The notes under the pieces are model-generated. The model ran no database searches. It was not told the origin of the DNA and was given only the letters and a program-made list of their open reading frames with translations. The position numbers were made by a program, and so were the translations under genes. From Halorhodospira halophila SL1 (lineage in GTDB: Bacteria; Pseudomonadota; Gammaproteobacteria; Nitrococcales; Halorhodospiraceae), in NCBI RefSeq assembly GCF_000015585.1, contig NC_008789.1, positions 1 through 32,000 of the forward strand: a stretch of 32,000 nt of DNA, given 5' to 3'. Within the stretch, counting starts at the first letter, position 1; every line of letters begins with the position of its first letter. Of this stretch, positions 35-18,439 are shown in pieces.

Positions 35-664
35 TTAGAGATGGACGGCTGCGCGGCAGGCGACGAGGCAGGCCCGCCCCTGACCCGCGATGGCCGGCAG
101 TTCGTGAACGTCCAGCGCCTCGACGAGCGCCTCCGGGAGCTCCGCCAGCTCCTCTTGGATCCGCTCGCCCTTCAACGCCAGCAGGGCCCCGTCGGGGGCG
201 AGGAGCCCGCGGGTCCCCGGGATCAGTGTGGCCAACGGGGCCACGGCGCGCGCGGTGACCACAGCGAAGTCACCGTCATCCAGGGCCTCCATACGCGCCT
301 GGCGCACCTGAACGCGGTGCAGGCCCAGCTCCGTGGCGCACTGGCGAAGGAAGCGCGTTTTCTTGCCGTTGCTGTCGATCAGGGTCACCGATCGATCGGG
401 CTCAATCAGGGCCAGCACGAGCCCAGGGAAGCCGGCCCCGCTGCCCACATCGGCCAGCGCGCCGGCCGGGAGGTAACGTCGGACGACCAGACTGTCGAGC
501 AGGTGCCGGTCGATGAGCGTCTCGACGTCCCGCGCAGCAGTGAGATTGTACGCGCGATTCCAGCGCATGAGCAGGGACAGAAAGCCCTCGAGGCGCTCCA
601 GGGCCGGGGCGTCGAGTTCAATCTGGAGGTCTTCGAGCCGCGATTCCAGGTACTTACGCGGCAT
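35..664 (-). CDS. rsmG: 16S rRNA (guanine527-N7)-methyltransferase RsmG (GidB)
   Basis: The translation [17 protein letters not shown]...[12 protein letters not shown]...[14 protein letters not shown] shows the typical RsmG SAM-MTase motifs. It lies immediately downstream of mnmG and overlaps it. I prefer the ATG at 664 over the GTG at 670 used by the ORF track. The stop is TAA at 35-37. Confidence 0.9.
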
Positions 665-2555
665 CTTCACCTCCGGTCGGCGTGCGCAGCCAGCCGCGGC
701 GGCGTAGATGAATCAGCAGCAGCGAGATCGCGGCCGGGGTGACTCCGGGCAGGCGGGCCGCCTGCCCCACCGTTGCCGGGCGCATCCGGGTCAGCCGCTC
801 ACGGACCTCGGTGGACAGGCCGTCGATGGCGGCATAGTCAAGCGCTTCGGGGAGGCGGACCTGCGCGTACCGCTGGTGGCGCTGGTTCTCCAACTCCTGG
901 CGTTCCACATACCCGTCGTAGCGGGCCTCGATCTCCAGTTGCTGGACCGCGCGAACCGGGAGGTCGGCCTCCTCCAGGCCACCGATGAAGCGCACGTCAT
1001 CGTAGGAAAGTTCAGGACGGCGCAGCAGGTCGAACAGCGTCTGGTCTCGGCGCAGCGCGCCACCGAGACGGGCCTGCTGGGAGGCCGTCAGCCGGCCCGG
1101 GTGTACCCGCGTGCCGTTAAGACGCGCCCGCTCGGCGTTGAGGGCGTCGCGGTAACGGGCAAAACGCGTCCATTGATCGTCCCCGACCGAGCCCAGGCGG
1201 CGGCCGACCTCGGTCAGGCGGTCCTCGGCGTTGTCGTCGCGTAGGCGCAGCCGATGCTCAGCGCGGCTGGTGAACATGCGGTAGGGCTCGGTGACGCCTG
1301 TGGTGACCAGATCGTCAATCAAGACACCGATGTAGGCCTCCTCGCGGGTGGGGAACCAGGGATCCTCCCCCGCCGACACACGCGCCGCGTTGAGCCCGGC
1401 GATCAGACCCTGGGCGGCGGCCTCCTCATAGCCCGTGGTGCCGTTGATCTGGCCAGCCAGGTAGAGGCCAGCGATGGTGGCGCTCTCGAGCCACGGGGTG
1501 AGTCCCCGGGGATCGAGGTAGTCGTACTCGATCGCGTAGCCGGGACGCGTGATCCGGGCCGCCTCCAGGCCCGGCATACTGCGAATCAGGGCTTCCTGCA
1601 CGGTGAACGGCAAGCCGGTGGAGACTCCGTTGGGATAGAGCTCAGTGGCGTCGAGCCCCTCGGGCTCGAGGAAGACCTGGTGGTGGTCGCGGTCGGCGAA
1701 CCGGACGACCTTGTCCTCGATCGACGGGCAGTACCGGGGGCCCGACGACTGGATCGCGCCGCTGTACATCGGGGAGTGGTCCAGGGCATCGCGGATGATG
1801 CGGTGGGTCTCCGGCGTCGTCCAGCTGATCAGGCAGGCGGCCTCCGGCAGCGGCGCCTCCGGCGGGCGGAAGGGCGAGAAGAGCGGACGCGGGGTGTCGC
1901 CGTGCTGGGCATCGAGCTGCTCGACGGCCACTGTTCGCCGGTCGATGCGCGGCGGGGTGCCCGTCTTGAGACGGTGAACCGCAAGCCCAAGGTCGCGCAG
2001 CGATGCCGACAGGCGATCCGCCGCCGGGTCCCCGGCGCGGCCAGCGCTGTGCTGGACATGCCCGATGTGGATCTGGCCGGCGAGGAAGGTGCCAGCGGTC
2101 ACCACCACCGCATCGGCGTGAAGGGTCGCGCCGCTTTCTGTCCGTACGCCATAACAGCGCTGATCAGCGACCAGCAGCTCCTCGGCGGCGTCCTGGAGCA
2201 GGGCAAGGCCGGGCAAGGCGTCGAGTGCCCGGCGCGCGGCCCGGGCGTAGGTAGGGCGGTCGGCCTGGATGCGGGTGGCACGCACCGCCGGCCCCTTGCG
2301 CTGATTGAGGACCCGGGCGTGGATGGCGGATGCGTCCGCGAGCCGCCCCATCACCCCGCCTAGCGCGTCGATCTCGCGGACCAGGTGCCCCTTGCCAATG
2401 CCGCCGATCGCCGGATTGCAGGAGAGCGCGCCAATGGTCTCGAGGTTGTGCGTGATCAGGAGGGTCGAACGGCCCAGTCGGGCGGCGGCAGCCGCGGCCT
2501 CCGTGCCGGCATGCCCGCCGCCAATGACGATGACATCGAAGCGGTTGGTGTTCAT
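654..2555 (-). CDS. mnmG: tRNA uridine-5-carboxymethylaminomethyl synthesis enzyme MnmG (GidA)
   Basis: An internal ATG at 2555 gives [28 protein letters not shown]...[23 protein letters not shown], the canonical FAD-binding N-terminus of MnmG, and a 633-aa product. The 263 codons upstream of it in the 896-aa track ORF have no MnmG homology and run antisense to fabF. Confidence 0.93.
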
Positions 2556-2596
2556 GCGGGGATTTTGGGCCGCCGGGACGGAAGCCTCAAGGGGGA

Positions 2597-2612
2597 TGTT
2601 CCACGTGGAACC
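2597..2612. other. parS: parS-like ParB-binding centromere site, copy 1 (TGTTCCACGTGGAACC)
   Basis: It contains the perfect 14-bp palindrome GTTCCACGTGGAAC and matches the chromosomal parS consensus tGTTNCACGTGNAACa at 15/16. It lies 42 bp upstream of the mnmG start, in the mnmG-rsmG neighbourhood where chromosomal parS sites typically cluster. Confidence 0.7.
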
Positions 2613-2645
2613 AACTTGCGGGGCGAGGCGGCCGTCGACCGCCAC

Positions 2646-3773
2646 GTGGATGTTCCACGTGGAACTACGGTCCAGTTCGGCGGGACCATCGAAGGGTTCG
2701 ATGTGTCCCAGTACCTGCCGCGCAAAGAGGCGCGGCGGATGGATCCGTTCATCCACTACGCCTTTGGTGCCTGCGCCGAGGCCCTGGATGGGAGCGGCCT
2801 GGAGATCCGCGAGGACAACGCAGACCGGATCGGAGTGGCTATCGGTTCCGGCATCGGCGGGATCCAGGGGATCGAGACCGGGCACCAGGCGCTGATGGAA
2901 GGGGGGGCGCGCAAGGTATCCCCGTTCCTGGTGCCGAGCAGTGTGATCAACATGGCGCCCGGCAATCTGTCCATCCACTACGGGTTGCGGGGGCCCAACC
3001 TGTCGACGGTGACGGCCTGCGCAGCAGGGACCCACAACCTTGGGGTATCCGCCCGGATGATCGCCGCCGGTGACGCCGATGTCATGATCGCGGGTGGGGC
3101 GGAGAAGTGCATCACCCCGCTGGGCCTGGCGGCGTTCTCCTCCGCCCGGGCGCTGTCGACACGCAACGATGACCCGCAGGGCGCGAGTCGGCCCTGGGAC
3201 GTCGATCGCGACGGCTTTGTCCTCAGTGAAGGGGCCGCGGTCGTGGTGCTCGAATCCTACGCTCATGCGCGGAAGCGCGGGGCGACGATCCTCGCCGAGT
3301 TGGTCGGGTTCGGCACCAGTTCGGACGCTTACCACATCACTCAACCGGCGGAGAGCGGGGAGGGGGCGCAGCGCTGTATGGCGCGGGCCCTTGAAGACGC
3401 CGGCATGAATCCTTCAGACATCGACTATATCAACGCCCACGGGACGTCGACCCAGGTCGGCGATGTGGCCGAGGCGGCTGCGGTCAAGCGGCTGTTCGGT
3501 GCGGGCGCCGGCGACGTCGCCATGAGTTCCACCAAGTCGGCAACCGGACATCTGCTGGGTGCCGCGGGGGGTCTCGAGGCCGTATTCAGTGTTTTGGCCC
3601 TGCGTGACGGGATCATCCCGCCGACGTGCAACCTGGCCGAACCCGAAGCGGATTGTGCCGGGCTGGACCTGGTGCCGGGCGAGGCCCGGAAGCAGCCGCT
3701 GCGAGCGGTCCTCAGCAACTCTTTCGGATTCGGCGGGACGAACGCTTCCCTGATCTTCCGCAAGCCGAGCTGA
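2646..3773 (+). pseudogene. fabF: 5'-truncated beta-ketoacyl-ACP synthase II (FabF/KAS II) remnant, or an N-terminally shortened CDS
   Basis: Homology to FabF begins at [13 protein letters not shown]...[14 protein letters not shown] (about nt 2668), which corresponds to E. coli FabF residue ~49 (KFAGLVKDF...RKEQRKMDAFIQYG). The catalytic Cys (VTACAAG) and both His motifs (NAHGTST, TGHLLGAAG) are intact, as is the C-terminus GFGGTNASLIFRK. Roughly 47 N-terminal residues have no room to exist, because the mnmG start is at 2555. The only in-frame starts are TTG 2613, GTG 2646, GTG ~2700 and ATG 2739. Confidence 0.75.
2651..2666. other. parS: parS-like ParB-binding centromere site, copy 2 (TGTTCCACGTGGAACT)
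   Basis: This is the second exact copy of the 18-bp unit GGATGTTCCACGTGGAAC (2648-2665). The first copy is at 2594-2611, 54 bp away start to start. An overlapping partial third core CCACGTGGA sits at 2642-2650. Confidence 0.7.
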
Positions 3774-3786
3774 GAAGTGGGGGGCT

Positions 3787-4653
3787 TTGAGCCGTAAGCA
3801 ACTGGTCAACGGCCGCGCGGATACGGCCCTCGACGCCGAGGATCGCGGCCTCGCCTATGGCGATGGACTGTTCGAGACCGTAGCGGTCAGCCGCGGTCGG
3901 CTATGCCTCTGGGACTACCACATGGATCGGCTCCTAGACGGCGCGCGCCGACTCGGGCTGCCCGAGCCGCCCTTGGCCACCCTGCGGGAAGAGGCCCGTT
4001 TCCTCACCGAGAAGGTGGAGCGGGGCGTACTGAAGGTGGTCTACACCCGCGGCAGCAGTGAGGGTCGTGGCTACCTGCCGCCTGCCAGGCCAATCCCCAC
4101 GCGAATCCTGACACTGCACAATACTCCGGCGATTCCGCCGGAGCGCTGGCAGGGGGTTGATGTCCGGCTCTGTCGGACCCGCATCAGCACGCAACCCCGG
4201 CTGGCCGGCATCAAGCATCTCAATCGCCTGGAGCAGGTGATGGCCCGATCCGAATGGCGGGATGCCGCCATCGCCGAGGGCTTGATGCTCGACGCCGACG
4301 GGCTCATCGTGGAAGGCACAGCGACCAACCTCTTCGGAATCCGCAATCGGGTGCTCATGACGCCCCCTCTCACACATTCAGGCGTGGCCGGTGTGATGCG
4401 GCGCTGGGTCCTGGAGTACGCCGAGACGCTCGGGCTGCGGGTCGAGCAGCGTGGCTTCTACCCGGGCGAGGTGTCCGAGATGGACGAGCTTTTTCTGACC
4501 AACAGCCTGATCGGCCTCTGGCCCGTCCGTTCCGTGGCGGGTACGCAGATACCGGTCGGACCGGTGAGTCAGCGCTATCTCCAGGCAATCGCCGATCATG
4601 GGCTCACCCCGTTGGTTGAGGAGCCGGCGATGCGCGGCGGGGCAGGGCGTTGA
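3787..4653 (+). CDS. pabC: aminodeoxychorismate lyase (class IV PLP aminotransferase fold)
   Basis: The translation shows RGLAYGDGLFETV...YHMDRL... and class IV aminotransferase features. It holds the conserved position between fabF and mltG. The start is TTG. Confidence 0.8.
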   Translation: MSRKQLVNGRADTALDAEDRGLAYGDGLFETVAVSRGRLCLWDYHMDRLLDGARRLGLPEPPLATLREEARFLTEKVERGVLKVVYTRGSSEGRGYLPPARPIPTRILTLHNTPAIPPERWQGVDVRLCRTRISTQPRLAGIKHLNRLEQVMARSEWRDAAIAEGLMLDADGLIVEGTATNLFGIRNRVLMTPPLTHSGVAGVMRRWVLEYAETLGLRVEQRGFYPGEVSEMDELFLTNSLIGLWPVRSVAGTQIPVGPVSQRYLQAIADHGLTPLVEEPAMRGGAGR

Positions 4654-5675
4654 TCGGGCGCGTACCGCGACGACGCTGGTGGGTCGTCGCCGTGGCTCTG
4701 GTGTTTGTTGTGTCGTCGGGAGTCGGCGGATGGCTGTTCTACGAGCTCGATCACCGTCCACTGGAGGTCAGCGCCCCCCCCGAGATCCTCGAGGTCCCCC
4801 GCGGAGGGTCCTTGCACGCCATCTCCCGGGGTCTCGAGTCCCGTGGCTGGATCCCCGGATCGACGCGCCTCGCGTTGCGAATCTACGGTCGCCTCAGCGA
4901 CATCTCGGGTGAGCTCAAGGCCGGCGAGTATGTCGTCGAGCAGGGTATGAGCGTGCGTCAGCTGCTGGCGCGGATCCGTGCCGGGCGGGTCAAGCTGCAC
5001 CGCCTGACCGTCGTCGAGGGTTGGACGTTCGCGCGGCTGCGCCAGGAGCTGGGCCAACACGAGGCCGTGGAGCAGACCCTGGACGGGGTGGAAGACGAGC
5101 AGATCATGGAGGAGCTGGGGCTCGAGGCGTCTCACCCCGAGGGGATGTTTTTCCCGACCACCTACCGCTTTCCGCGTGGCGCGACCGACCGTGATCTGCT
5201 CCGGGTCGCTGCTCGGCAGATGCGCCAGGAGCTGGCGCGGGTGTGGAGCGAGCGCCACCCGGAGGTGCCCCTGGACGAGCCCTACCAGGCGCTGATCCTC
5301 GCCTCGATTATTGAGCGCGAGACCGGGCGCGATGATGAGCGCCGCAAGGTGGCGGGGGTGTTCACCCGGCGCCTGGAGCAGGGTATGCGCCTGCAGACGG
5401 ATCCCACCGTGATCTACGGTCTGGGCGATGACTACGACGGCCGCCTGCGCCGGGCTGACCTGCGACGCGATACGCCCTACAACACGTATACGCGCCACGG
5501 TTTGCCGCCGACCCCGATCGCCCTTCCCGGGCGGGCGTCGTTGGAGGCCGCCGTGGACCCGAAACCGGGTAGTGCGCTGTACTTTGTGTCACGCGGGGAT
5601 GGCAGCCACCACTTCTCGGATACGCTGGACGAGCATAATCAGGCGGTGCGACGCTACATCCTGGAGGAGAAGTGA
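4650..5675 (+). CDS. mltG: endolytic murein transglycosylase MltG (YceG family)
   Basis: It has an N-terminal TM helix (WWVVAVALVFVVSSGVGGW) and the YceG motifs LKAGEY, LASIIERET and YNTYTRHGLPPTPIALPG. The TTG start overlaps the pabC stop (TTGA). Confidence 0.88.
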   Translation: MIGRVPRRRWWVVAVALVFVVSSGVGGWLFYELDHRPLEVSAPPEILEVPRGGSLHAISRGLESRGWIPGSTRLALRIYGRLSDISGELKAGEYVVEQGMSVRQLLARIRAGRVKLHRLTVVEGWTFARLRQELGQHEAVEQTLDGVEDEQIMEELGLEASHPEGMFFPTTYRFPRGATDRDLLRVAARQMRQELARVWSERHPEVPLDEPYQALILASIIERETGRDDERRKVAGVFTRRLEQGMRLQTDPTVIYGLGDDYDGRLRRADLRRDTPYNTYTRHGLPPTPIALPGRASLEAAVDPKPGSALYFVSRGDGSHHFSDTLDEHNQAVRRYILEEK

Positions 5676-6319
5676 CCGAGCGAGGGTGTTTCATCACGGT
5701 GGAGGGGCTGGAAGGGGCTGGTAAGACCACCTGTCTACAGGCTATCGAGCAGATGCTGCTTGAGGCCGGCATCGACCGCCCCCTGTTTACCCGGGAGCCT
5801 GGCGGAACCCCGTTCGGGGAAGCGCTGCGCGGCGCGCTCTTGGATCCGCAGTACCGCGGCCTGACGGCAGAGGCCGAGGCGTTGACCGTGTTCGCGGCCC
5901 GTGCCGAACATCTGGCGCAAGTCATCCGGCCCACGCTGGATGCCGGACGCTGGGTGATCAGTGATCGCTTCACGGATGCTACCTATGCTTATCAGGGGGG
6001 TGGCCGTGGCCTTGGCGATGAACGGATTGCTGTGCTGGAGCGCTGGGTTCACGGTGGGTTCACGCCGGACCGCACGCTCCTGCTGGACGTGGACCCCACG
6101 GTGGGGCGGTCACGGGTCGCCCACCGAGGCGACGGAGAAGACCGCTTTGAGCAGGAGCGGGATCCCTTCTTCCAAGCCGCGCGCGCCGCTTACGCCCGAC
6201 GCGCCGCAGCAGATCCCGAGCGCTTCCGCTGCATCGACGCCAACCGGCCCGAGGGCGAGGTGGCGGAACAGGTACGTGCCGGAGTGGCCGATCTCTTGCC
6301 GGTGGGTGGACGACCGTGA
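5672..6319 (+). CDS. tmk: thymidylate kinase
   Basis: The translation starts FITVEGLEGAGKTT (P-loop) and contains DRFTDATYAYQG. The GTG start overlaps the mltG stop (GTGA), with a GGAGGAG RBS at 5663-5669. Confidence 0.92.
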   Translation: MTERGCFITVEGLEGAGKTTCLQAIEQMLLEAGIDRPLFTREPGGTPFGEALRGALLDPQYRGLTAEAEALTVFAARAEHLAQVIRPTLDAGRWVISDRFTDATYAYQGGGRGLGDERIAVLERWVHGGFTPDRTLLLDVDPTVGRSRVAHRGDGEDRFEQERDPFFQAARAAYARRAAADPERFRCIDANRPEGEVAEQVRAGVADLLPVGGRP

Positions 6320-7371
6320 GCGAGGCCGCCCATCTCTCGGACTGGATCACGCCCCGGGACGGGCGGGAGCAACTCCCGCCGTGGCTGCTGCCGGAGCTGG
6401 ACCGGTTGCTCACCCTCCACGATCAGGGCCGGCTCCATCACGCGCTGTTGCTGACGGGTCGCACCGGCCTTGGCAAACGGCTCCTGGCGGGCGTCCTGGC
6501 CCGGGCGCTGCTCTGTCAGGCGGACGAGGGGGGCGGGGCGCGGCCCTGCGGTCAGTGCCGGGGTTGCCATCTGACCGGCGGGGGTTCCCACCCCGATTTG
6601 CGCACGCTGAGTCCGAGTAGCCGCGGCGAGCGCGGTGAGATCGTGGTCGACAGCGTGCGTGGGCTGGTCGATTTCCTGCATCTGAGCGCGCAACGGGGGG
6701 GGAGTCGGGTGGCGGTGATCGTTCCTTGTGATCGCCTCAACCGCGCCGCCGCCAACAGCCTGCTCAAAACCCTGGAGGAGCCACCTCCGGGCGTCTTCCT
6801 GATCTTGGCCACCGGTCGGCCCGGACGGCTGCCGCCGACCGTACGAAGCCGATGCACCGTACGTGGCCTGACGCCGCCGGCCTGGGACGCAGCGCGGCGG
6901 TGGCTGGCCGAGCGCGCGGGCGGGGCCGAGGGCCGGGTCGACAAGGCGCTCGCGCTGGCCGGCGGCATGCCGCTGACTGCCGAGCAGATCCTCCATGAGC
7001 AGGGGCTGGAGGGATACGAGTCGCTGCTCCAGCAGCTGCACCGCCTCAGCGCCGGAGGAGACCCGGTCAAGGAGGCCGAGGCCTGGGAGGGGGCGCCGGA
7101 GGCACTGGCCGACGCCGTTACAGCGATCCTGGCGGATCTACTGCGTCAACGCCACGGGGCGCCGGATCGCGGACTACTGCCGTCGCCGCTGGCACAGCAG
7201 CTGGTCCGCGAAGCCTCGGTGGAGGCGCTCCACCAGGCGTTCTTGCGTATCGGCGAGCATCGGCGCGGCCTCGAGCAGCCTCTGAATGGCCGTCTGGCCG
7301 CCGAGGCGATCTTCCTCGACCTGGCCGCCGCCTTGCGGCCCGCTCGTCAATCCGCCGCCAGACAGGCGTGA
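6316..7371 (+). CDS. holB: DNA polymerase III subunit delta-prime
   Basis: Motifs are HALLLTGRTGLGKRLLA, the zinc-module-like CGQCRGCH and the SRC motif (VRSRC). The GTG start overlaps the tmk stop. It holds the conserved position after tmk. Confidence 0.88.
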   Translation: MSEAAHLSDWITPRDGREQLPPWLLPELDRLLTLHDQGRLHHALLLTGRTGLGKRLLAGVLARALLCQADEGGGARPCGQCRGCHLTGGGSHPDLRTLSPSSRGERGEIVVDSVRGLVDFLHLSAQRGGSRVAVIVPCDRLNRAAANSLLKTLEEPPPGVFLILATGRPGRLPPTVRSRCTVRGLTPPAWDAARRWLAERAGGAEGRVDKALALAGGMPLTAEQILHEQGLEGYESLLQQLHRLSAGGDPVKEAEAWEGAPEALADAVTAILADLLRQRHGAPDRGLLPSPLAQQLVREASVEALHQAFLRIGEHRRGLEQPLNGRLAAEAIFLDLAAALRPARQSAARQA

Positions 7372-8477
7372 AGCCGCCGCCAGGCTTCCTCCAGGTCCTC
7401 GGCTGTGTTGTAAAAATGTGGCGAGAAGCGGATCCCGCCGCAGCGCGAGGCACACGCCACGTCACGGGCACGCAGCGCCGCCAGGAGACGCTCCGGATCC
7501 GCTCCCGGTACGCGGAAGGTCACGATGCCGGCGTGCCGTTGCGGCTCCGACGGTGTAACCAGCTCAAAGCCGTGGCGCTGGACTCCCTCCATGGCGTGCC
7601 GGGCGTTTTCCAGGACGCGCCGCTCGACCTCGTCCAGGCCGACCTCTTCTAGGACGGCCAAGCTGGCCTCGAGGGCGTGGGAACCGAGCAGATTGGGGCT
7701 ACCCGGCTCCAGGCAGCGACCGTTGCCGGCCGGATCCCAGCCAGGGCGGTCGAATGCGCCGAGCTCGTCGGCCATGTGCCAACCGATCTGCCAGAGCCTT
7801 AACTTGTCGCGCACCCGCGGGTGGACGTACAGACCGCCAATGCCTTCCGGACCAAGCATCCACTTGTGGCCATCGGCGACGATAAAGTCGGCATCCACCG
7901 ACAGCCTCAGCGCCCCCAGGGTCTGGATGGCATCGACGCACAGCAGGATGCCGCGTTCGCGGCAGGCGGTGCTCAGGCGCTCCAGATCCATGCGCAGCCC
8001 GGTGCCGTACTGGACGCTGCTCACCGGCAACAGTCGGGTTCGCGGTGTCAGGGCGTCGATCAGGGCGTCTTCGGGCGTGGCGCCGTCACTCAGTCGGACC
8101 TGGCGAACGTGGACACCGTAGTGCTCGGCGAGCGACTGCCAGACCCAGCGATTGGAGGGAAATTCCTGGTCGTTGATGACCACCTCATCCCCGGGGTGCC
8201 ACGTGACCCCATGCGCAACCATCGACAGGCCCGCTGAGGTGTTGGGAACCAGGGCGATGTCCTCCGCTGCGGCGTCACCGACCCCCATCAGTCGGGCGAG
8301 CCGGGCACGCAGCCGGTCTTCGGCCTCAAGCCATTGGGGGTAGTCCGCGGCGCCCCGGTGCAGGCACTCATCCGCGAACCGATGGACGGCATCCCGCGTT
8401 CGCTGCGGCCAGGTGCCGACGCCAGCGTGGTTGAGGTAGACCAGGTTTGGGTCCAACGGGAACTCTGGGTGGGCCAT
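7347..8477 (-). CDS. class V PLP-dependent aminotransferase / cysteine desulfurase-like enzyme
   Basis: The translation shows VYLNHAGVGTWP, VPNTSAGL and a PLP-lysine context ADGHKWMLGPEGIGGLYV. The specific substrate cannot be assigned from sequence alone. Confidence 0.8.
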   Translation of the reverse strand: MAHPEFPLDPNLVYLNHAGVGTWPQRTRDAVHRFADECLHRGAADYPQWLEAEDRLRARLARLMGVGDAAAEDIALVPNTSAGLSMVAHGVTWHPGDEVVINDQEFPSNRWVWQSLAEHYGVHVRQVRLSDGATPEDALIDALTPRTRLLPVSSVQYGTGLRMDLERLSTACRERGILLCVDAIQTLGALRLSVDADFIVADGHKWMLGPEGIGGLYVHPRVRDKLRLWQIGWHMADELGAFDRPGWDPAGNGRCLEPGSPNLLGSHALEASLAVLEEVGLDEVERRVLENARHAMEGVQRHGFELVTPSEPQRHAGIVTFRVPGADPERLLAALRARDVACASRCGGIRFSPHFYNTAEDLEEAWRRLHACLAAD

Positions 8478-8583
8478 CGCCGTTGCCTTTGTGGTTGCAG
8501 CGGTGAACGACCGAGTATACCGAGCCGTTGGCGGGTTGTCGGCAAGCCCGCCGGCCGCAGCCGCCGTGTCGCCGGCACGCCTG

Positions 8584-8611
8584 GGGCCGTGGAAGGTATA
8601 TTATGTTAAAT
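8584..8611 (+). other. dif: dif-like XerC/XerD recombination site (GGGCCGTGGAA GGTATA TTATGTTAAAT)
   Basis: The XerD arm TTATGTTAAAT (8601-8611) matches E. coli dif 11/11. The central hexamer GGTATA matches TGTATA 5/6. The XerC arm GGGCCGTGGAA matches GGTGCGCATAA only 6/11. It is the only strongly AT-rich island in a 234-bp intergenic region of a GC-rich window. Confidence 0.6.
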
Positions 8612-8711
8612 AGCCCGCGACCCCAAGAGAAGGAAGGCCGGCCGTGGTCCCTGACTCAGTGGTCGGATGCGCCCTGTCCGGCGCCCTACCCACCCCGAGA
8701 GCTTTTACGCC

Positions 8712-9485
8712 TCAGACTTGCCGTGTCTCCCGCCATCGCTGGGCGTGCTCCTCGTCAGCGATATTCCACTCGTGCTCGATGAACTGTTTATCTCCGGTCT
8801 CCAGCAACGCCCACAGGATGAAGTCGGCAGCGTCCTCGGGGCTGTGAAGCTGACCGTTCTGCTTAAGCTTGATGAAGCGATCCACGGCCGGGAAGCGCTC
8901 CGGGGTCTGGGTCCGGATGTGATCCTGCATGGGGGTATCCACCACGCCCGGGCGAACCGAGCCGACCAGGATCCCCTCGCGCCATAACTCTTCGCGGTAG
9001 ATCTGGTAGACCATGAACAGCGCAGCCTTGCTGGTGCAGTACGCACCCCAGCCCATGGACGGCTTGTGCGCCGCTCCCGACGAGATATGCAGGATTCGGC
9101 TTCCCGGCTCCATGAGTGGCAGCAGCCCCTGGCTGAGGAAGACCGGCGCTTCCACGTTAACCGCCATGGCTTTCCGCCAGGCGTCGAGGTCCACGTCCTT
9201 GAGCGGTCCCACCGGATCGAGAAGACCGGCATTGTGGATGACCGCGCGCACCGTGTAGCCCTGCGCGGCCTCGATGATGTGTCCGCGCTCGTCAGCATGG
9301 GCGATATCCGCGCTGAGTGTGCGAATCCGGTCTGAATCGGCGGTGGCGGTTTCGGCGAGCGCCTCAGGGCGTCGCCCGACCGTGAGCACCTGGGCTCCGT
9401 CCCGGGCAAGCCCGCGCACCAGTGCCCTGCCCAGGCCGCTACCACCACCGGTCACGACCACCAGTTCGTTCTCATGCCACCTCAT
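8712..9485 (-). CDS. short-chain dehydrogenase/reductase (SDR) family oxidoreductase
   Basis: It has the cofactor motif VVVTGGGSGLGRA and the catalytic YCTSKAAL (YxxxK). I prefer the ATG at 9485 because AAGGAG lies 5 nt upstream; the track GTG at 9500 sits inside that RBS context. Confidence 0.85.
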   Translation of the reverse strand: MRWHENELVVVTGGGSGLGRALVRGLARDGAQVLTVGRRPEALAETATADSDRIRTLSADIAHADERGHIIEAAQGYTVRAVIHNAGLLDPVGPLKDVDLDAWRKAMAVNVEAPVFLSQGLLPLMEPGSRILHISSGAAHKPSMGWGAYCTSKAALFMVYQIYREELWREGILVGSVRPGVVDTPMQDHIRTQTPERFPAVDRFIKLKQNGQLHSPEDAADFILWALLETGDKQFIEHEWNIADEEHAQRWRETRQV

Positions 9486-9577
9486 GTTGCGCTCCTTCAC
9501 TCAACGATCGGCCTGCTCACCGCGATGGCACGCCTGACTTCAATTCGATTCAGTGAACAGTGTAACGAGTCAGACAA

Positions 9578-10555
9578 TCACAGGTCGCTGTCCGGACCAA
9601 TGATCCGATTCGGCGGCACTCCCCCCGTTGCAAACGCCACCAGATTATCGCGCAGCTGCTCGACAATGCGGCGTCGCGCCTCCAGCGCCGACCAAGCGCT
9701 GTGCGGTGTGACGGTAACGTTCGGTAGATCCGCGGCCAGTAGCGGGTGGTCCGGCGGGGGGGGTTCCTGTGTCAGGACGTCGAGCGCGGCCGCCCCGATC
9801 TCTTCGTTCCGCAGTGCCGTGGCGAGCGCCGACTCATCCACCAATCCCCCCCGGGCGGTGTTGACCAGCAGTGCATCGCTGCGCATTCGCCGCAGCGCCC
9901 CGGCGTCGATCATCCCGGCTGTCTCCTCCGTCAGCGGGCAATGCAGGCTCAGCACGTCCACTTCCGGCAGCAACTCGTCAAACGGGACCCGGCCCACCCG
10001 GCAGCGATGGGCCGAGGGCCGCTCGGCCAGCCATACCTCCATGCCGAGGGCTTGCGCAAACGCCGCAACCCGCTGCCCCAGAGTGCCGTAACCGACAACC
10101 CCCAGGCGCCGACCGGCAATCTCGCGCTGGGCGGGATCGATCAGGCTAAAGTGCGGCGCCCGGCTCCACTCCCCGTCCCGAACCCGGGCGGTGAACGCCG
10201 GGATGCGTGTGAAATGGTTCAGGACCAGAGTGAGCGTATGCTGAGCGACGGCCGTGGTGCCGTAATCCTGGCAGTTGGTGACCGTGATGCCCCGCCGCCG
10301 GGCGGCTTCCAGGTCCACGTTGTTGGTGCCCGTAGCCGCAACGGCGATCAGCCGCAGCTTCGGCAAGCAGCTGAGGATCCCGGCGTCGAGGACGACCTTG
10401 TTGACGATGGCCGCCTCTGCCGGCTCGAGTCTAGGGAGCAACGCCTCGGGACGGGTTCGGGGGTAGCACTCAAGGGGGTCAGCCGCCTGTTGCAGCGGCG
10501 TCAGATCCAGGTCACCGGGGTCCAGGGACCCCGCGTCGAGGAAGACGGTATGCAT
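9578..10555 (-). CDS. D-isomer-specific 2-hydroxyacid dehydrogenase (glycerate dehydrogenase / hydroxypyruvate reductase-like)
   Basis: The translation shows LRLIAVAATGTNNVDLEAARRRGITV, the NAD motif GVVGYGTLGQRVA and TPHSAW near the C-terminus. Confidence 0.85.
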   Translation of the reverse strand: MHTVFLDAGSLDPGDLDLTPLQQAADPLECYPRTRPEALLPRLEPAEAAIVNKVVLDAGILSCLPKLRLIAVAATGTNNVDLEAARRRGITVTNCQDYGTTAVAQHTLTLVLNHFTRIPAFTARVRDGEWSRAPHFSLIDPAQREIAGRRLGVVGYGTLGQRVAAFAQALGMEVWLAERPSAHRCRVGRVPFDELLPEVDVLSLHCPLTEETAGMIDAGALRRMRSDALLVNTARGGLVDESALATALRNEEIGAAALDVLTQEPPPPDHPLLAADLPNVTVTPHSAWSALEARRRIVEQLRDNLVAFATGGVPPNRIIGPDSDL

Positions 10556-10657
10556 AGCGTGGAATCGGTCCCGGTCAGAACACCACCTGACGAGCGGTTG
10601 CGCGCCAGCCTGTTCGCTATTCTATGACCTTTCAGCCCGTGAAACAGGAGGCAACTG

Positions 10658-11284
10658 ATGATGCCGCAAGGCAGTGGCACCGGCCCGTCCCCTTCCTCGG
10701 ACGCCCTGAATCAGGCGGCACGGCTGCCTGCCCCCCTACCGGTCATTGCGGTCACTGGCTACTCGGGGGCCGGCAAAACAACCCTGCTGACCGGTCTGGT
10801 TACCCAGATGCGCAGCGCCGGCTGGTCCCCTGCGGTGGTCAAACATGCTCACCACGGATTTGATATGGACCGCCCCGGTAAGGACAGCTACCGGGTGCGG
10901 GAAGCCGGTGCCGAGCAGGTTCTGGTGGTTTCCGCTCAGCGCTGGGCCCTGCTGACGGAGACTCCGACTGAGGAGCATGATGACGACCTGCTGGTGACCA
11001 GGCTGCGCGCCATCGACCCGACTCGAGCCGACGTCATACTCGCCGAAGGCTTCCGCCACAGTGGCGCGGGGCAATTGCTGGTCCATAGCCAACGCACCGG
11101 AGTCGAGCGTCCCGACTTCCAGGCGCCGGGCGTACTTGGCGTGGCCACCGACGACCCCGAAGCTGTGCCGCCTGGCCTCCCCTGCCTCGATCTCGATGAT
11201 CACGCTGGCCTGGCCGCCTTCGTTGAGCGTTGCATCCACGGCATTATAAGCCGTGCTCGCGGGAACCAGGCGGGCGAGTATTAA
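10658..11284 (+). CDS. mobB: molybdopterin-guanine dinucleotide biosynthesis adapter protein MobB
   Basis: Motifs are VIAVTGYSGAGKTTLL (P-loop) and VVKHAHHGFDMDRPGKDSYR. An AGGAGG RBS lies at 10646-10651. The protein carries an N-terminal extension of about 28 aa relative to typical MobB. Confidence 0.85.
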   Translation: MMPQGSGTGPSPSSDALNQAARLPAPLPVIAVTGYSGAGKTTLLTGLVTQMRSAGWSPAVVKHAHHGFDMDRPGKDSYRVREAGAEQVLVVSAQRWALLTETPTEEHDDDLLVTRLRAIDPTRADVILAEGFRHSGAGQLLVHSQRTGVERPDFQAPGVLGVATDDPEAVPPGLPCLDLDDHAGLAAFVERCIHGIISRARGNQAGEY

Positions 11285-11434
11285 CAAGAAAAATCAGGAG
11301 GTTAAAAGACCTTTCGCCCTTCCCTGCGGGCGGCCCCGGGGTTACATTGATCGACGCGGCACCCCGTTGTGGGTGAGCCGATAACAATCACAACACCCCG
11401 GGGACGGTGACAACCTCAAGCAGGGAGGGGACCC

Positions 11435-13339
11435 ATGAGCTACCAGGAGACTTATTGGGAGTCGATCAACGATCCGGAGGCGTTCTGGCTACGTGAGGCG
11501 CAGCTGCTGCAGTGGATCGCTGAGCCTCCTGCCGCCCTGAGCCTGGATGAGCAGGGTCGGCAGCGGTGGTTCCGTGGGGGGCGCCTGAACGTCTCCCAGC
11601 TGGCCCTGGATGCCCATGTCGAGGCCGGTCGGGGCGAACAGCCTGCCCTCCTCTACGACTCCCCGGTGAGTGGTTCCCGCGAGCAATACACCTACCGGCA
11701 GCTGCTGGACGAGGTGTCCCGAGCCGCGGGGATGCTGCGCGATCTCGGTGTCGGGCATGGCGACCGGGTCGTTATCTATATGCCCATGATCCCCGAGGCG
11801 GTCATCGCCATGCTCGCCTGCGCGCGGCTGGGTGCCATCCACTCGGTGGTCTTCGGTGGTTTCGCCGCCAACGAACTGGCGGTACGGATCGATGACGCCA
11901 ACCCCCGGGTTGTCCTGACGGCGAGCTGTGGGATCGAAGTCGATCGGGTCATCCCCTATCAACCACTGGTCGATGAGGCCCTACGCCGCGCGGAACACAA
12001 GCCAGCGCGGGTCGTTTACGTCAGCCGGCCTCAGGCCCAGGTGGCGTGGGACGAAAATCGGGATCTGGACTGGCACACGCAGCTGGCGCAGTCGGCCCCG
12101 GCAGAGCCGGTGGCCGTGGATGCCACGGATCCCCTCTACATCCTCTACACCTCCGGGACGACCGGAAAACCCAAGGGGGTGGTCCGGGATAGCGGCGGAT
12201 ACGCCGTGGCACTGAATTGGAGCCTCGGGGCGATCTACGACCTCCACCCCGGCGACGTTTTCTGGACCGCCTCGGATGTCGGCTGGGTCGTCGGCCACTC
12301 CTACATTGTCTACGGCCCCCTGATTCGCGGCTGCACGACCGTCGTCTACGAAGGCAAGCCGGTGCGGACCCCGGATGCCGGCGCGTTTTGGCGCGTGATC
12401 TCGGAGTATCGCGCAAAGGCGTTCTTCACCGCCCCCACCGCCTTTCGGGCAATCAAGAAGGAAGACCCCGAGGCACGCCACCTGCAGGACTACGATCTCT
12501 CCTGCCTGGAGAATGTCTTTGTCGCCGGTGAGCGGCTGGATCCCCCCACCTACGAGTGGCTTTCGCAAACCCTGCAACGGCCCGTGATCGATCACTGGTG
12601 GCAGACGGAGACGGGTTGGCCCATCGTTGCGAACCCGATGGGCATCGAGCCCCTGCCCATCAAGAGTGGCTCGGCCACCGTGCCCATGGCCGGCTACGAC
12701 ATCCGCGTGCTCGACGATTCCGGCCGCGAGCTCCCCGCCGGCGAGCAGGGCAACCTGGCCATCCGGCTCCCGCTGCCGCCCGGCTGTCTGCCAACCCTCT
12801 GGAATGATGAGGCCCGCTTCCGGAAGTCCTACCTGGAGCGTTTCCCTGGGTTCTACGACACCTCGGACGGCGGATTGATCGATGAGGATGGTTACGTCTA
12901 CGTGATGGGCCGGGTGGACGATGTGATCAACGTCGCCGGCCATCGCCTCTCCACCGGGGAGATGGAGGAGGTCATCGGTGATCACTCGGCGGTGGCGGAA
13001 TGCGCCGTGGTTGGCATCCACGACGACACCAAGGGTGAGCTGCCAGTGGCCTTCGTGGTGCTCAAAGACGGGACCGACATCGATCAGGAACGAATCGAGG
13101 AGGATCTGGTAGCCATGATCCGTAACGAGATCGGGGCCATCGCCTCCCTTCGCCGCGTCGCCGTGGTTCAGAAGTTGCCCAAGACCCGTTCCGGGAAGAT
13201 CCTGCGCAAAAGCATCCGGACACTGGCGAAGGAGGCGCGGGAACAGGTCCCCACCCCGTCGACCATCGACGACGCCTCCAGCCTTGACGAGATCGCTGAT
13301 GCGATTCAGACCTACAACCTGGGGCGCTACGCCTCCTGA
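11435..13339 (+). CDS. prpE: propionate--CoA ligase (acyl-CoA synthetase, PrpE-like)
   Basis: The match is collinear with PrpE throughout: YMPMIPEAVIAMLACARLGAIHSVVFGGFA, IDDANP, YTSGTTGKPKGV, GGYAVAL, DVGWVVGHSYIVYGPL, LPKTRSGKILR and the C-terminal TIDDASSLDEI. Confidence 0.85.
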   Translation: MSYQETYWESINDPEAFWLREAQLLQWIAEPPAALSLDEQGRQRWFRGGRLNVSQLALDAHVEAGRGEQPALLYDSPVSGSREQYTYRQLLDEVSRAAGMLRDLGVGHGDRVVIYMPMIPEAVIAMLACARLGAIHSVVFGGFAANELAVRIDDANPRVVLTASCGIEVDRVIPYQPLVDEALRRAEHKPARVVYVSRPQAQVAWDENRDLDWHTQLAQSAPAEPVAVDATDPLYILYTSGTTGKPKGVVRDSGGYAVALNWSLGAIYDLHPGDVFWTASDVGWVVGHSYIVYGPLIRGCTTVVYEGKPVRTPDAGAFWRVISEYRAKAFFTAPTAFRAIKKEDPEARHLQDYDLSCLENVFVAGERLDPPTYEWLSQTLQRPVIDHWWQTETGWPIVANPMGIEPLPIKSGSATVPMAGYDIRVLDDSGRELPAGEQGNLAIRLPLPPGCLPTLWNDEARFRKSYLERFPGFYDTSDGGLIDEDGYVYVMGRVDDVINVAGHRLSTGEMEEVIGDHSAVAECAVVGIHDDTKGELPVAFVVLKDGTDIDQERIEEDLVAMIRNEIGAIASLRRVAVVQKLPKTRSGKILRKSIRTLAKEAREQVPTPSTIDDASSLDEIADAIQTYNLGRYAS

Positions 13340-13348
13340 CCCGGCCAC

Positions 13349-13376
13349 CCGGGCGCAGCGCGAGTGCTGCGTCCGG
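13349..13376. terminator. GC-rich hairpin between convergent prpE and mtfA (possible bidirectional terminator)
   Basis: It forms an 11-bp stem (CCGGGCGCAGC / GCTGCGTCCGG, with one G-U pair) and a 6-nt loop. There is no clear U-tract. Confidence 0.35.
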
Positions 13377-13399
13377 TTACCATGCGCCCCCCCCTCCCG

Positions 13400-14158
13400 C
13401 TAGCCCAGAGACCAGCCGTAGAACCGCGCTAGCTGCCGGTAGACCTCCGGAAAGGCCCGTCGAAGCCGGTGCGGATCGGCGAAGAACGTCTCCGTGGCCA
13501 CCGCGAAGAACTCACCAGGGTCTTGCCCGGCGTAGGGGTCGAGCGGAGTTACGGCGCACGCTCCCTCGGCCGCGTAGGCCTCCATGGTGTGAAAAGCGGG
13601 CAGGAACGCCGCCGACCAGTCATCAACGGTCATCCCGCGTGGCAGGGGGGGCAGACCGTTGACTGCTCCTTGCCCCATATCGAGCTTATGGGCGCACTCA
13701 TGGATGACGACGCTGCTCCCCGGCTCCGGTGCCAGGGCATCTTCCAGGGAGAGTACCAGCGGCCCGCCCTCCCACGCCTCGCCAATCAGGGGGCCCTGCT
13801 CGACGTGAACGACCCCGTCCTCGTCCTCATACTCGTGGGTGGCCACGAAACCGGCTGGATAAAGGAGAATGGTCGTCCAGGGCGCATACCAATCCACGCC
13901 CAATTCAAGCACCGGCACCGCCGCCTGAAGCGCCACGGTATCGACCGCCAAGGCATCGAGGGTAACCCCGGCCACGCCCTCGAAGCGCTTTTCGTGGATC
14001 AGCGCAGTCGCCGCAGCAGCCAACCGTTGCCGTGTACCGGGGGGCAGTCGGCGCAAGCCTGGCAGCGCTGCCTCGGCACGGCTCCAGGCGGCGGGCGAAA
14101 GCCGGTAGCGCTGCGCTATACGCTGACGCCGCCAGTTACGCAGCCATCCCACGTGCAC
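13400..14158 (-). CDS. mtfA: MtfA-like zinc-dependent peptidase (M90 family, Mlc titration factor A homologue)
   Basis: The match is collinear with E. coli MtfA: VPVLELGVDWY, the HExxH motif IHECAHKLD and DPYAGQDPGEFFAVATETFFADP. Confidence 0.82.
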   Translation of the reverse strand: MHVGWLRNWRRQRIAQRYRLSPAAWSRAEAALPGLRRLPPGTRQRLAAAATALIHEKRFEGVAGVTLDALAVDTVALQAAVPVLELGVDWYAPWTTILLYPAGFVATHEYEDEDGVVHVEQGPLIGEAWEGGPLVLSLEDALAPEPGSSVVIHECAHKLDMGQGAVNGLPPLPRGMTVDDWSAAFLPAFHTMEAYAAEGACAVTPLDPYAGQDPGEFFAVATETFFADPHRLRRAFPEVYRQLARFYGWSLG

Positions 14159-14224
14159 GCCTCCCTTGGGGTCCGGGTCTCGCCTGAGTCATAATCCACG
14201 GCCGTTGCCACTGGAAGACCGATC

Positions 14225-15424
14225 ATGCCAGAAACCACCCCCAGCGGTCCGCGCAAGCACATCACCGTCAACGGCACCGAGTTCGTGCTCCTGGGTACGG
14301 CGCACATCTCCCAGGCCAGTACCGAAGAGGTCCAGCGTGAGGTGGCCAGTGGCGCCTACGATGCGGTCGCCATCGAACTGTGCGAGAGCCGTCTGCGCGC
14401 CTTCCGCGAGCCCGATCATCTGGAGCGGATGGACCTGTTCCAGACCCTGCGTGACGGACGCGGGGGACTGGTCATGGCCAGTCTCGCGCTGGGCGCCTAT
14501 CAGCAGCGCCTAGCGGAGCAACTCGGGGTCGATCCCGGGGCGGAGATGAAGGCGGCCGCGGCCGGGGCGGAGCAGTATGGGGCCGATCTGGTGCTGGTTG
14601 ACCGTGAGGTCGGGGTCACCATGCGCCGCCTCTACCGCAATGTGCCCTGGTGGCAACGCTTCGGGCTCATCGGCGGACTGATCGGCAGCCTCGCCTCTTC
14701 CCAGCGGATCAGCAGCGAGGAAGTGGAGCGGCTTAAGCAAGGCGACCTGTTGGAGTCGACCTTTCGCGAGCTGGCCCAGAGCAGTCGAGCCCTGTACCAG
14801 CCGCTGATCGATGAGCGCGATCGGTACATGGCTGCCAGGCTCCTGGAGTCCGCCGCCGGGCGCTACAAGCGTGTCCTCGTCGTCCTCGGGGCCGGGCACC
14901 TGGAGGGGGTGACGCGCTATCTGGGGCAGGCCTCGGCGGATCCCGGCGCCGAGCGCGAGGCGCTGGACCGTATGCCGCCCCCGGCACGCTGGCCACGTTA
15001 CCTGGCCTATCTGGTCGCCATCGTGATCATCTCCGGCTTCGTCATCGGGTTCAGCCGCAGTCCGGAACTGGGCTGGACCCTGGTCGCCACTTGGGTGCTG
15101 ATCAACGGTGGCTTCTCGGCCCTGGGCGCCGCCCTCGCCTACGGCCACCCGGTCACCGTTGCCGGGGCCTTCCTGGCCGCCCCCCTGACATCGCTCAACC
15201 CGACCATCGGCGCCGGGTTTGTCGCAGCAGCGATCGAGCTGACCGTCCGGAGACCGCGGGTCGGCGACTTCCGCGCCCTGCGCCAGCACGTGGCGCACTG
15301 GCGCGGCTGGTGGACCAACCGAGTGGCCCGAACCCTGCTAGTGTTCTTCTTCGCCTCGCTCGGTTCGGCCGTTGGCACCTATCTCGCCGGCGCACGCATC
15401 ATTGAGCGCCTGATTGCCGCCTAG
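14225..15424 (+). CDS. TraB/GumN family protein
   Basis: The N-terminal motif is ITVNGTEFVLLGTAHISQASTEEV...YDAVAIELCESR, followed by LVVLGAGHLEG. The C-terminal part is hydrophobic and multi-TM. Confidence 0.8.
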   Translation: MPETTPSGPRKHITVNGTEFVLLGTAHISQASTEEVQREVASGAYDAVAIELCESRLRAFREPDHLERMDLFQTLRDGRGGLVMASLALGAYQQRLAEQLGVDPGAEMKAAAAGAEQYGADLVLVDREVGVTMRRLYRNVPWWQRFGLIGGLIGSLASSQRISSEEVERLKQGDLLESTFRELAQSSRALYQPLIDERDRYMAARLLESAAGRYKRVLVVLGAGHLEGVTRYLGQASADPGAEREALDRMPPPARWPRYLAYLVAIVIISGFVIGFSRSPELGWTLVATWVLINGGFSALGAALAYGHPVTVAGAFLAAPLTSLNPTIGAGFVAAAIELTVRRPRVGDFRALRQHVAHWRGWWTNRVARTLLVFFFASLGSAVGTYLAGARIIERLIAA

Positions 15425-15438
15425 ACGGTCGGCGACGG

Positions 15439-16992
15439 TTACCGGTCTCGGGTAGCCAGGAAGCGGATGTCTGGCCAGCGCTCCTGGGTGAGTTCGAGGT
15501 TGGCGCGGGTGGGGGCCAGATAGGCGAGCGCCCCGGTCCCATCCCAGGCCAGTGCCGACTCGTTGCGGTCACGGAAACGCTGCAGCGCCTTCTCGTCTTC
15601 GGCACTGACCCAACGGGCCGTATAGACCTGGACCCCTTCAAAGGTGCACTCGACCCCGTACTCCTTCTGTAGCCGGTAGGCGGCCACGTCGAACTGAAGA
15701 GTCCCGACGGCACCGACAATCCAGTCGGAGCCGAGCAGCGGCCGGAAGAGCTGGGTGGCTCCCTCTTCACACAGTTGCTCAAGTCCCTTCTGTAACGCCT
15801 TCATCCGCATCGGATCACGAAGCACAACCCGGCGGAATAGCTCCGGGGCAAAGTCGGGGATGCCGGTGAAGTGTAACGACTCGCCCTCGGTGAAGGCATC
15901 GCCGATGATGATGGTGCCATGGTTGTGGATGCCAATGATGTCGCCAGGGGCTGCCGTCTCGGCATGGGAGCGGTCGCTGGCCATGAAGGTGGTGGCACGC
16001 GGGATCTTCATGTTCTTGCCGGTGCGCACCTGATAGAGCTTCATGCCGGGTTCAAAACGCCCTGAACAGACTCGCAGGAACGCAATGCGATCGCGGTGTT
16101 GAGGATCCATGTTGGCCTGGATCTTGAAGACGAACCCGGTGAAGTTCTCCTCGTCGGCGCGGACCTCACGGCCGGCATCCCGGCTGCGCGGCGCCGGCGC
16201 GTGCTCGACGAAGTCATCGAGCAGCTCGCGGATGCCGAAGTCATTGACGGCCGAACCGAAGTAGACTGGGGTCAGCTGACCAGCCAGATAGGCCTCTGGA
16301 TCGAACGAATCACTGGCTTCCCGGACCAGCTCGATCTGCTCGCGCCATTCGTCCACCTCCCCCGGGAAAAGCTCATCGAGCCGCGGGTTGTCCAGCCCCT
16401 GGATGATCTCGCGGTCCATAAACAGGCGCACCTGGTCGAGGTGGAGGTGGTAGACCCCGCGGAAACCGCGCCCCATGCCTAAGGGCCAGGTGACGGGGGC
16501 GCAGCGGATGCGCAGCACCGACTCGACCTCATCGAGGACCTCCACGGGGTCGCGGCCGTCCCGATCAAGCTTGTTGATGAACGTGGTGATCGGGGTATCT
16601 CGCATCCGGCAGACATCCATCAACTGCACGGTGCGCTCCTCCACGCCCTTGGCGATATCGATGACCATCAGGGCGGAGTCGACAGCCGTCAGCGTACGAT
16701 AGGTATCCTCCGAGAAGTCGCCGTGGCCGGGCGTATCGAGCAGATTCAGGATGCGTTCACGGTAGGGGAACTGCATCACCGAGGAGGTCACCGAGATCCC
16801 CCGCTCTTGTTCCATGGCCATCCAGTCTGAAGTGGCGTGGGCTTTGGATTTCCTTCCCTTGACCGACCCCGCCATCTGGATCGCACCTCCGTAATAGAGG
16901 AGCTTCTCGGTGAGGGTGGTCTTGCCGGCGTCGGGGTGCGAGATGATCGCGAAGGTCCGTCTCTTCGCTGCTTCGGTGGCCACGTCTTGCAT
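15439..16992 (-). CDS. prfC: peptide chain release factor 3
   Basis: It has [21 protein letters not shown] (G1), [16 protein letters not shown] (G3) and INKLDR (G4), and is collinear with PrfC over 517 aa. Confidence 0.93.
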
Positions 16993-17213
16993 CGGTTCTC
17001 CTAGCCGGGGTGAATGATGACGGCGTCAAACCGTATGATTTTACCCGATGCCGCTCGGGTACGTCCTCTTCCCCAGGAGGATCTGTGCCCGCAGACGGGA
17101 ACCTGAGCGGCGCTGCCGATGTCGCATCAGGCAGCGCGTCGGGATCGGGCGGCCGGGTCGGCTGCCCTGCGTCGGCGAATGAATCCTGCGAAGTTGCAAG
17201 AGGAGTCCTCAGC

Positions 17214-17708
17214 ATGAAGAACCAACAGTGGATCAAGCTCCCGGCCACCGCTGCAGCGCTGGCGCTGGTATTCAGTGTCAGTGCCCAGGCTCAGCAGGAT
17301 CCGGGGATGGGTCAGCAGGATCCGGGGATGGGTCAGCAGGACCCCGGCATGGAGCAACAGGATCCAGGGATGGGGCAGCAGGACCCCGGCATGGAGCAAC
17401 AGGATCCTGGCATGGCCCAGCCCGAGCCTGATCAAGCCACGTTCAGCAGCGATCAGATCGAGCGTTTCGTGGACGCGTACCTGGACATCATCGATATCCA
17501 GGAGGAGTACACCTCGGAGATCGAGGGGACTGACGGCGCCGAAGATGCCCGTGAGCTGCAGGAGCAGGCCAACGACGAGATGGTCGCGGCTATCGAGGAC
17601 AATGGGTTGAGCGTTCCCGAGTACTCCGAGATCGCCAACGCCATGGACATGGATCCGGAGCTGCGGGACCAGGTCTCTTCGAAGATCCACGAGCGTGAAG
17701 AGGGCTGA
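17214..17708 (+). CDS. secreted DUF4168-family protein with a Met/Gln/Asp-rich heptad repeat
   Basis: The start is ATG at 17214 with an AGGAG RBS at 17201-17205. The signal peptide is MKNQQWIKLPATAAALALVFSVSAQA|QQ. Six QQDPGM(G/E/A) repeats follow. The C-terminal domain (FSSDQIERFVDAYLDI...GLSVPEYSEIANAMDMDPELR) resembles DUF4168. Confidence 0.75.
   Translation: MKNQQWIKLPATAAALALVFSVSAQAQQDPGMGQQDPGMGQQDPGMEQQDPGMGQQDPGMEQQDPGMAQPEPDQATFSSDQIERFVDAYLDIIDIQEEYTSEIEGTDGAEDARELQEQANDEMVAAIEDNGLSVPEYSEIANAMDMDPELRDQVSSKIHEREEG
17292..17417 (+). repeat. 6 x 21-bp in-frame tandem repeat (CAGCAGGATCCGGGGATGGGT-like)
   Basis: Copies 1 and 2 are identical, and copies 3 and 5 are identical. Copies 3+4 and 5+6 together form a 42-bp higher-order unit. 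All copies encode QQDPGMx. Confidence 0.95.
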
Positions 17709-17737
17709 CGCCCCCCCCTGTGCACGGGAGCGCTCCC

Positions 17738-18401: not shown

Positions 18402-18439
18402 GATCAGGCGCGGACGCCAGGAGTGACAGGAGGACTATC

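Follow-up and report, generated by a model that had tools for sequence, protein, structure and literature searches.

The 32-kb stretch of Halorhodospira halophila DNA analyzed here (the window) carries, immediately upstream of mnmG (gidA), two copies of a palindrome that are very probably chromosomal parS sites, the centromere-like sequences where the partition protein ParB is predicted to load. This reading follows from the match of both copies to parS, from the presence of cognate parA and parB genes 2.6 kb away, from a position close to the origin of replication, and from the conservation of the sites in relatives where the sequence between them is not conserved. They are ordinary parS sites, unannotated yet predictable from the consensus, the element being well known and its position common in proteobacteria. 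The result adds two unannotated, correctly placed centromere sites to the origin region of H. halophila. These can be of use in annotating the genome, mapping the origin, and designing ParB chromatin immunoprecipitation experiments, and they leave the understanding of ParABS systems unchanged.

Read directly from the sequence, the 18-mer GGATGTTCCACGTGGAAC occurs twice, at positions 2594-2611 and 2648-2665 (54 nt from start to start), and one perfect 14-bp palindrome GTTCCACGTGGAAC lies inside each of them, at 2598-2611 and 2652-2665. A scan of the window allowing up to two mismatches returned just these two matches. In the shuffle control of the same scan, the mean was 0.08 matches and two or more were found in 0 of 100 shuffles. 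Base-composition arithmetic at around 68% G+C gives an expectation of about 0.008 perfect copies in a 2.7-Mb genome, and the occurrence of two of them 54 nt apart is therefore not due to chance. The 16-mers around these cores, TGTTCCACGTGGAACC for the mnmG-proximal copy (copy 1, 2597-2612) and TGTTCCACGTGGAACT for the distal one (copy 2, 2651-2666), each agree with TGTTNCACGTGNAACA at 15 of 16 positions. When the parS consensus is written as the 16-bp inverted repeat tGTTNCACGTGNAACa, each site scores 15/16 and its 14-bp core is perfect. An earlier description of this DNA made from its letters only (the sequence-only reading) had reported the repeated 18-mers, their palindromes, the offset of 54 bp, and the coordinates as we find them. 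Its 15/16 score was reproduced for both 16-mers, and its statement that the 32 kb hold no other copy stands even when two mismatches are tolerated.

The core of copy 1 spans -56 to -43 relative to the mnmG ATG, and the proximal 18-mer begins 38 nt from this codon. Both copies share a GGAT flank. In the native arrangement, mnmE ends in a TAG stop codon that overlaps the outer base pairs of copy 2. The stretch between the sites (2613-2650) has a sequence that is not conserved in relatives. It includes the partial core CCACGTGGA (2642-2650), which overlaps the flank of copy 2 and which the sequence-only reading had listed as a third, partial core. The letters are indeed there, but no equivalent was found in the corresponding spacer of three relatives described below (L085, L087, and L091). 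This partial core can pair with copy 2 as a 9-bp hairpin, flagged by the terminator scan on a strand without a gene end, and a role for it in this region is without support in the sequences compared.

The native surroundings of the twin sites were obtained from a locus (L001) that encodes the exact MnmG protein of the window. This locus is contig NRRO01000008.1 of assembly GCA_016583685.1, listed in a published table as H. halophila strain 9630 (PMC8877833). An identical MnmG is also recorded as H. halophila GenBank ABM60797.1. The gene order in L001 is gyrB-recF-dnaN-dnaA / rpmH-rnpA-yidD-yidC-mnmE-(parS, parS)-mnmG-rsmG-parA-parB-atpIBEFHAGDC-glmU, where the slash stands for the divergent rpmH-dnaA spacer. 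In the window, mnmG (654-2555, minus strand; TIGR00136, 800 bits) is the first gene of the mnmG-rsmG-parA-parB string, and rsmG (gidB) occupies 35-670 on the same strand (TIGR00138). Window position 1 corresponds to L001 12555. The parA gene (L001 12559-13353) begins 4 nt past the left edge of the window, 2.6 kb from the twin sites, and parB lies at L001 13388-14281, i.e., downstream of rsmG and beyond the left edge, where the sequence-only reading had expected the pair. The encoded ParB has 297 aa, the domains ParB_N, HTH_ParB, and ParB_C (TIGR00180, 196 bits), the N-terminal motif LGRGLDALL, and the GERRWRA box GERRWRAAQRAG. It aligns over residues 1-239 with the Caulobacter ParB of a ParB-parS structure (6T1F, E = 6e-56). 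Judged by these domains and motifs, the ParB of this strain is a canonical chromosomal ParB, which supplies the homologue that the sequence-only reading had presupposed.

The rpmH-dnaA spacer of L001 contains two perfect DnaA boxes, at 5978 and 5998 (span 5978-6006), and three near-perfect ones, with one mismatch each, lie between dnaA and dnaN (4406-4530). This cluster probably marks oriC. The twin sites, at L001 9891 and 9945, are around 3.9 kb from the perfect boxes and from dnaA. A further parS-like site, GGTTCCAGGTGGAACG, was found within recF (L001 2805-2818). It has a single mismatch, in the central CG, and about 7 kb, including dnaA, separate it from the twin sites. A second locus of the strain (L002, an internal part of contig NRRO01000003.1) contained no parS-like site at up to three mismatches. 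Altogether, the approximately 56.6 kb of the strain that were scanned hold two perfect sites and the one-mismatch site in recF, all of them beside the origin.

To compare mnmE-mnmG spacers, we gathered close relatives via MnmG homologues. In H. halophila 9624 (L085/L086, MnmG 87% identical) there are two parS sites, one overlapping the mnmE stop codon, as in our locus, and the other at -56, and the stretch of approximately 40 nt separating them shows no relation to the inter-site sequence of the window. A Halorhodospira sp. metagenome-assembled genome (L087, MnmG 78%) has three sites in this spacer, and a metagenomic relative (L091, MnmG 71%) has two. The site at -56 is kept in L085 and L087, and it stands at -51 in L091. 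The spacer of H. abdelmalekii (L090, MnmG 64%) is 316 nt long and contains four perfect ATGTTCCACGTGGAACAT palindromes. These 18-bp repeats, at L090 4737-4982, form an array larger than any other found in the lineage, and their AT-extended flank agrees with the GGAT flank of the window copies. Hence, the number of sites (2-4), their spacing (35-94 nt), and the intervening sequence vary among relatives while the palindromes stay, and by this comparison of sequences the mnmE-mnmG palindromes are a clear phylogenetic footprint. A variable parS array of two to four sites in this spacer is kept in the five Halorhodospira-lineage genomes examined, and such arrays are common in beta- and gammaproteobacteria.

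The wider distribution of the sites was surveyed in 78 beta- and gammaproteobacterial mnmG loci with enough upstream sequence, encoding MnmG relatives at 52-60% identity. All counts from this survey refer to loci among the matches listed. At least one GTTNCACGTGNAAC is present within 300 nt upstream of mnmG in 34 of the 78 loci, at least two sites in 18, and parB lies downstream in 32 of the 34 loci having an upstream parS. The density of sites is 2.3/kb in the 300 nt upstream of mnmG and 0.04/kb elsewhere in the loci, a concentration of around 57-fold. The loci of Pseudomonas, Xanthomonadales, Vibrio, Pasteurellaceae, and enterobacteria in this set had no site within 300 nt upstream of mnmG. 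Burkholderiales loci have a conserved GTTTCACGTGAAAC within the mnmG coding sequence, approximately +1413 to +1446 from the gene start; the loci with such an intragenic site are L027, L028, L042, L043, L049, L052, L053, L059, L060, L063, L067, L069, L071, L080, and L082. In Comamonadaceae-type loci, mnmG has no upstream site, and an extra one lies at approximately +2500 to +2617, close to where rsmG meets parA. We also considered a helical phasing of the twin sites and rejected it, given that the offset of 54 nt observed here compares with 35-94 nt in close relatives and 26-80 nt in the survey.

Some observations weigh against the identification of the palindromes as parS. Position 16 is off the consensus in both sites, so that there is no perfect 16-mer among them. 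The scan for the distribution of parS covered about 56.6 kb of a genome of roughly 2.68 Mb. Finally, the more distant Arhodomonas (L092, MnmG 60%) has the same gene order and no parS in its mnmE-mnmG spacer, which indicates that the position is common and not obligatory.

The closest parallels to the predicted parS pair come from characterized partition systems. In Pseudomonas aeruginosa, parS2 and parS3 are TGTTCCACGTGGAACA, parS1 and parS4 are TGTTCCACGTGGAACC, ParB binds all four, with slightly weaker affinity for the sites with one mismatch and with specific binding of parS1 and parS4, and any single one of the four is enough for segregation (PMC4368675). The core palindrome of H. halophila is identical to that of P. 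aeruginosa, and the 16-mer of copy 1 is the sequence of parS1 and parS4. The symmetric T5C/A12G variant has been described as the Pseudomonas form of parS (PMC5450999), and the same palindrome is the parS of Myxococcus xanthus and P. putida (PMC7022226). Hence, the attribution of this C/G variant to Pseudomonas-type parS in the sequence-only reading is documented (PMC4368675, PMC5450999, PMC7022226), with Myxococcus to be added. H. halophila and P. aeruginosa also share a small origin-proximal cluster of sites, the mnmG(gidA)-rsmG(gidB)-parA-parB string, and a gammaproteobacterial ParB. They differ in layout. The four P. aeruginosa sites are near oriCI, at distances of approximately 10 and 20 kb from parAB; upstream of gidA there are instead DnaA boxes (oriCII) that regulate gidAB-parAB (PMC13438810). 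The H. halophila pair, by contrast, occupies the mnmE-mnmG spacer itself, with parA 2.6 kb away. No parS was found less than 5 kb from mnmG in the three Pseudomonas loci among the matches listed in our survey.

The position of the H. halophila pair is shared with betaproteobacteria, where, among the matches listed, one to three parS are found approximately 50-220 nt upstream of mnmG, followed by rsmG-parA-parB, and where many loci have twin sites 26-80 nt apart. However, their sites are mostly of the T/A variant GTTTCACGTGAAAC or have mixed half-sites, and the Burkholderia group has the additional conserved site within mnmG, at around +1416. Chromosome I of B. cenocepacia has two sites, tGTTNCACGTGAAACa (PMC7022226), which may correspond to the mnmG-upstream sites. 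M. xanthus shares the GTTCCACGTGGAAC palindrome (consensus TGTTCCACGTGGAACG) near parAB and the origin (PMC7022226, PMC3899335). It differs in having 22 sites and an essential system, to be compared with two perfect sites and one degenerate site in the 22 kb around the H. halophila origin. The closest ParB with a solved structure is that of Caulobacter crescentus (6T1F, 7BM8), which has the same GERRWRAAQRAG CTP-binding box (CTP, cytidine triphosphate) and a similar helix-turn-helix segment, although the Caulobacter sites are mainly GTTTCACGTGAAAC and lie beside parB.

Mechanistically, the CTP-dependent loading of ParB clamps at parS is modeled on Caulobacter ParB-parS. By analogy with the established ParABS model and with the identical P. 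aeruginosa site, we infer ParB binding, CTP-dependent spreading, and a role in segregation for the H. halophila pair. A ParB dimer would use its helix-turn-helix domains to recognize each 16-bp inverted repeat, and would then bind CTP, close as a clamp, slide away from parS, and spread on the nearby DNA. The partition complex would then form a few kb from oriC, and the action of ParA there, probably together with the loading of SMC, would result in the segregation of the origin region.

The proximity of copy 1 to mnmG raises the question of a second function in gene regulation. A promoter-like element is found upstream of mnmG on the minus strand (2562-2590), with TTGAGG at 2585-2590, a 17-nt spacer, and CAAAAT at 2562-2567. 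Counted from the A of the ATG of mnmG, the hexamers span -35 to -30 and -12 to -7, with no Shine-Dalgarno sequence between the element and the gene. Three relatives, L085, L087, and L091, conserve the pattern TTGAG(G/C)-N17-CA(A/G)AAT. The sigma-70 consensus scan reported no promoter, as the element scores 8/12 and the threshold is 9/12, and our call is made from conservation and geometry only. Since the hexamers sit at -35 and -10 of the A of the ATG, a leaderless mRNA is implied, and mnmG may be transcribed from that A. The conserved -35-like hexamer lies 7 nt downstream of the end of the proximal 14-bp palindrome, a distance at which ParB could modulate mnmG-rsmG-parA-parB, i.e., its own operon. 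The parS pair would then be dual, acting as a centromere and as the operator of the ParB-encoding operon, with ParB nucleation or sliding setting its expression. We regard this dual role as rather unlikely. If true, it would constitute an autoregulatory loop of a chromosomal ParB, unlike V. cholerae, in which neither ParA1 nor ParB1 regulates the promoters of gidAB and parAB1 and autorepression is absent (PMC4010829), and unlike P. aeruginosa, where control is by DnaA (PMC13438810).

The same short distance to the -35-like hexamer could also fit a regulator distinct from ParB, a dedicated transcription factor controlling mnmG-rsmG-parAB with the palindromes as its operators. Palindromes centered on CACGTG serve various regulators, and in P. 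aeruginosa the corresponding stretch upstream of gidA is regulatory and binds DnaA (PMC13438810). However, the agreement with parS goes beyond the CACGTG core and extends over the whole 14-16 bp, the varying copy number (2-4) and spacing (35-94 nt) are better suited to loading sites than to a fixed operator, and the motif accompanies parB in 32 of 34 proteobacterial loci among the matches listed. An operator of this kind thus seems highly improbable. The P. aeruginosa parallel could also point to an oriCII-like cluster of DnaA boxes, as found upstream of gidA in Pseudomonas (PMC13438810), and TGTTCCACG agrees with TTATCCACA at 6 of 9 positions. Yet the 109-nt mnmE-mnmG spacer has no TTATCCACA-type DnaA box at up to one mismatch, and the perfect and near-perfect boxes cluster instead in the rpmH-dnaA and dnaA-dnaN spacers, respectively, which makes us give this explanation hardly any weight.

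A role at the RNA level, in which the paired copies form a long hairpin that terminates or stabilizes the mnmE mRNA, has in its favor that the copies pair as a 14-bp stem when the spacer is folded (-52.7 kcal/mol, z = -2.8) and that the terminator scan flagged hairpins in the spacer. Such pairing is nevertheless automatic for any two identical palindromes, and relatives keep the exact parS sequence and do not show compensatory changes. An intrinsic terminator of mnmE was rejected as a candidate: the terminator-like hits are antisense only, on the strand without a gene end, and the mnmE/mnmG sense strand shows no U-run after the stem. We consider the RNA explanation very improbable too. The notion that the palindromes belong to a dispersed family of the repetitive extragenic palindrome or bacterial interspersed mosaic element type, devoid of a segregation role, finds no support in our results and is at odds with their distribution in the DNA scanned. 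The rest of the window (29 kb, up to two mismatches) and L002 (up to three) hold no more copies, the sole other similar site in the 56.6 kb is the one-mismatch recF site, which is also adjacent to the origin, and in related genomes among the matches listed the motif is concentrated approximately 57-fold just upstream of mnmG. The likelihood of such a family is, in our view, minimal. Chromosomal parS remains by far the preferred reading.

The window itself is a composite at this location, and this affects the outer flank of the distal parS copy. Positions 1-2667 correspond to L001 12555-9889 (NRRO01000008.1) and positions 2668-18477 to L002 15810-1 (NRRO01000003.1), both with 100% identity, so that two unrelated genomic pieces of one strain meet at 2667|2668, right beside copy 2. 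The join is blunt, with no sequence common to both sides at the breakpoint. To its right, a fragment of fabF (beta-ketoacyl-ACP synthase II, 2668-3773) enters at around codon 47, the first 46 or so codons being gone, and the frame accordingly fits the family profiles from about profile position 41-45 on. Next come pabC, mltG, tmk, and holB. In L002, fabF is intact (414 aa) and part of the usual plsX-fabHDG-acpP-fabF-pabC cluster, and in L001 the native neighbor of copy 2 is mnmE.

Other assemblies show the native arrangement. In SRR5961519 (a contig of 28.9 kb) and SRR9436782, mnmE precedes the parS pair, with 100% identity, and the identity with the window ends exactly at 2667. A contig of SRR9436781 continues 35 nt beyond the junction into native fabF. 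Logan contigs terminate close to where the two pieces of the window do, no more than 8 and 35 nt away, which suggests concatenated contigs. The proteins expected from the likeliest truncated fabF frames (2508-3773 and 2646-3773) are not on record, the look-up for the frame at 2646 being a weak one as its GTG start may be stored as M. As three other assemblies have mnmE beside parS, the join is most likely an artefact of concatenation or assembly, and a real rearrangement is very unlikely. The other parts of the window that were checked (2668-18477 and 21019-30499) are contiguous in other assemblies. While the outer flank of copy 2 is not native in the window, both 16-mers are fully within native sequence, and the parS finding is thus untouched by the junction. 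The junction is nonetheless a warning on data quality: a centromere beside a truncated fabF should not be taken as biology.

A few other features of the window were noted. Adjacent genes for tRNA-Cys(GCA) and tRNA-Leu(TAA) are found at 22358-22578, unrelated to the parS sites, and an Rfam scan of the window reported two tRNAs only, far from these sites. A self-comparison of the window by BLAST also revealed, at 17291-17421, a tandem repeat with a period of 42 nt and 86.5% identity inside a DUF4168 gene.

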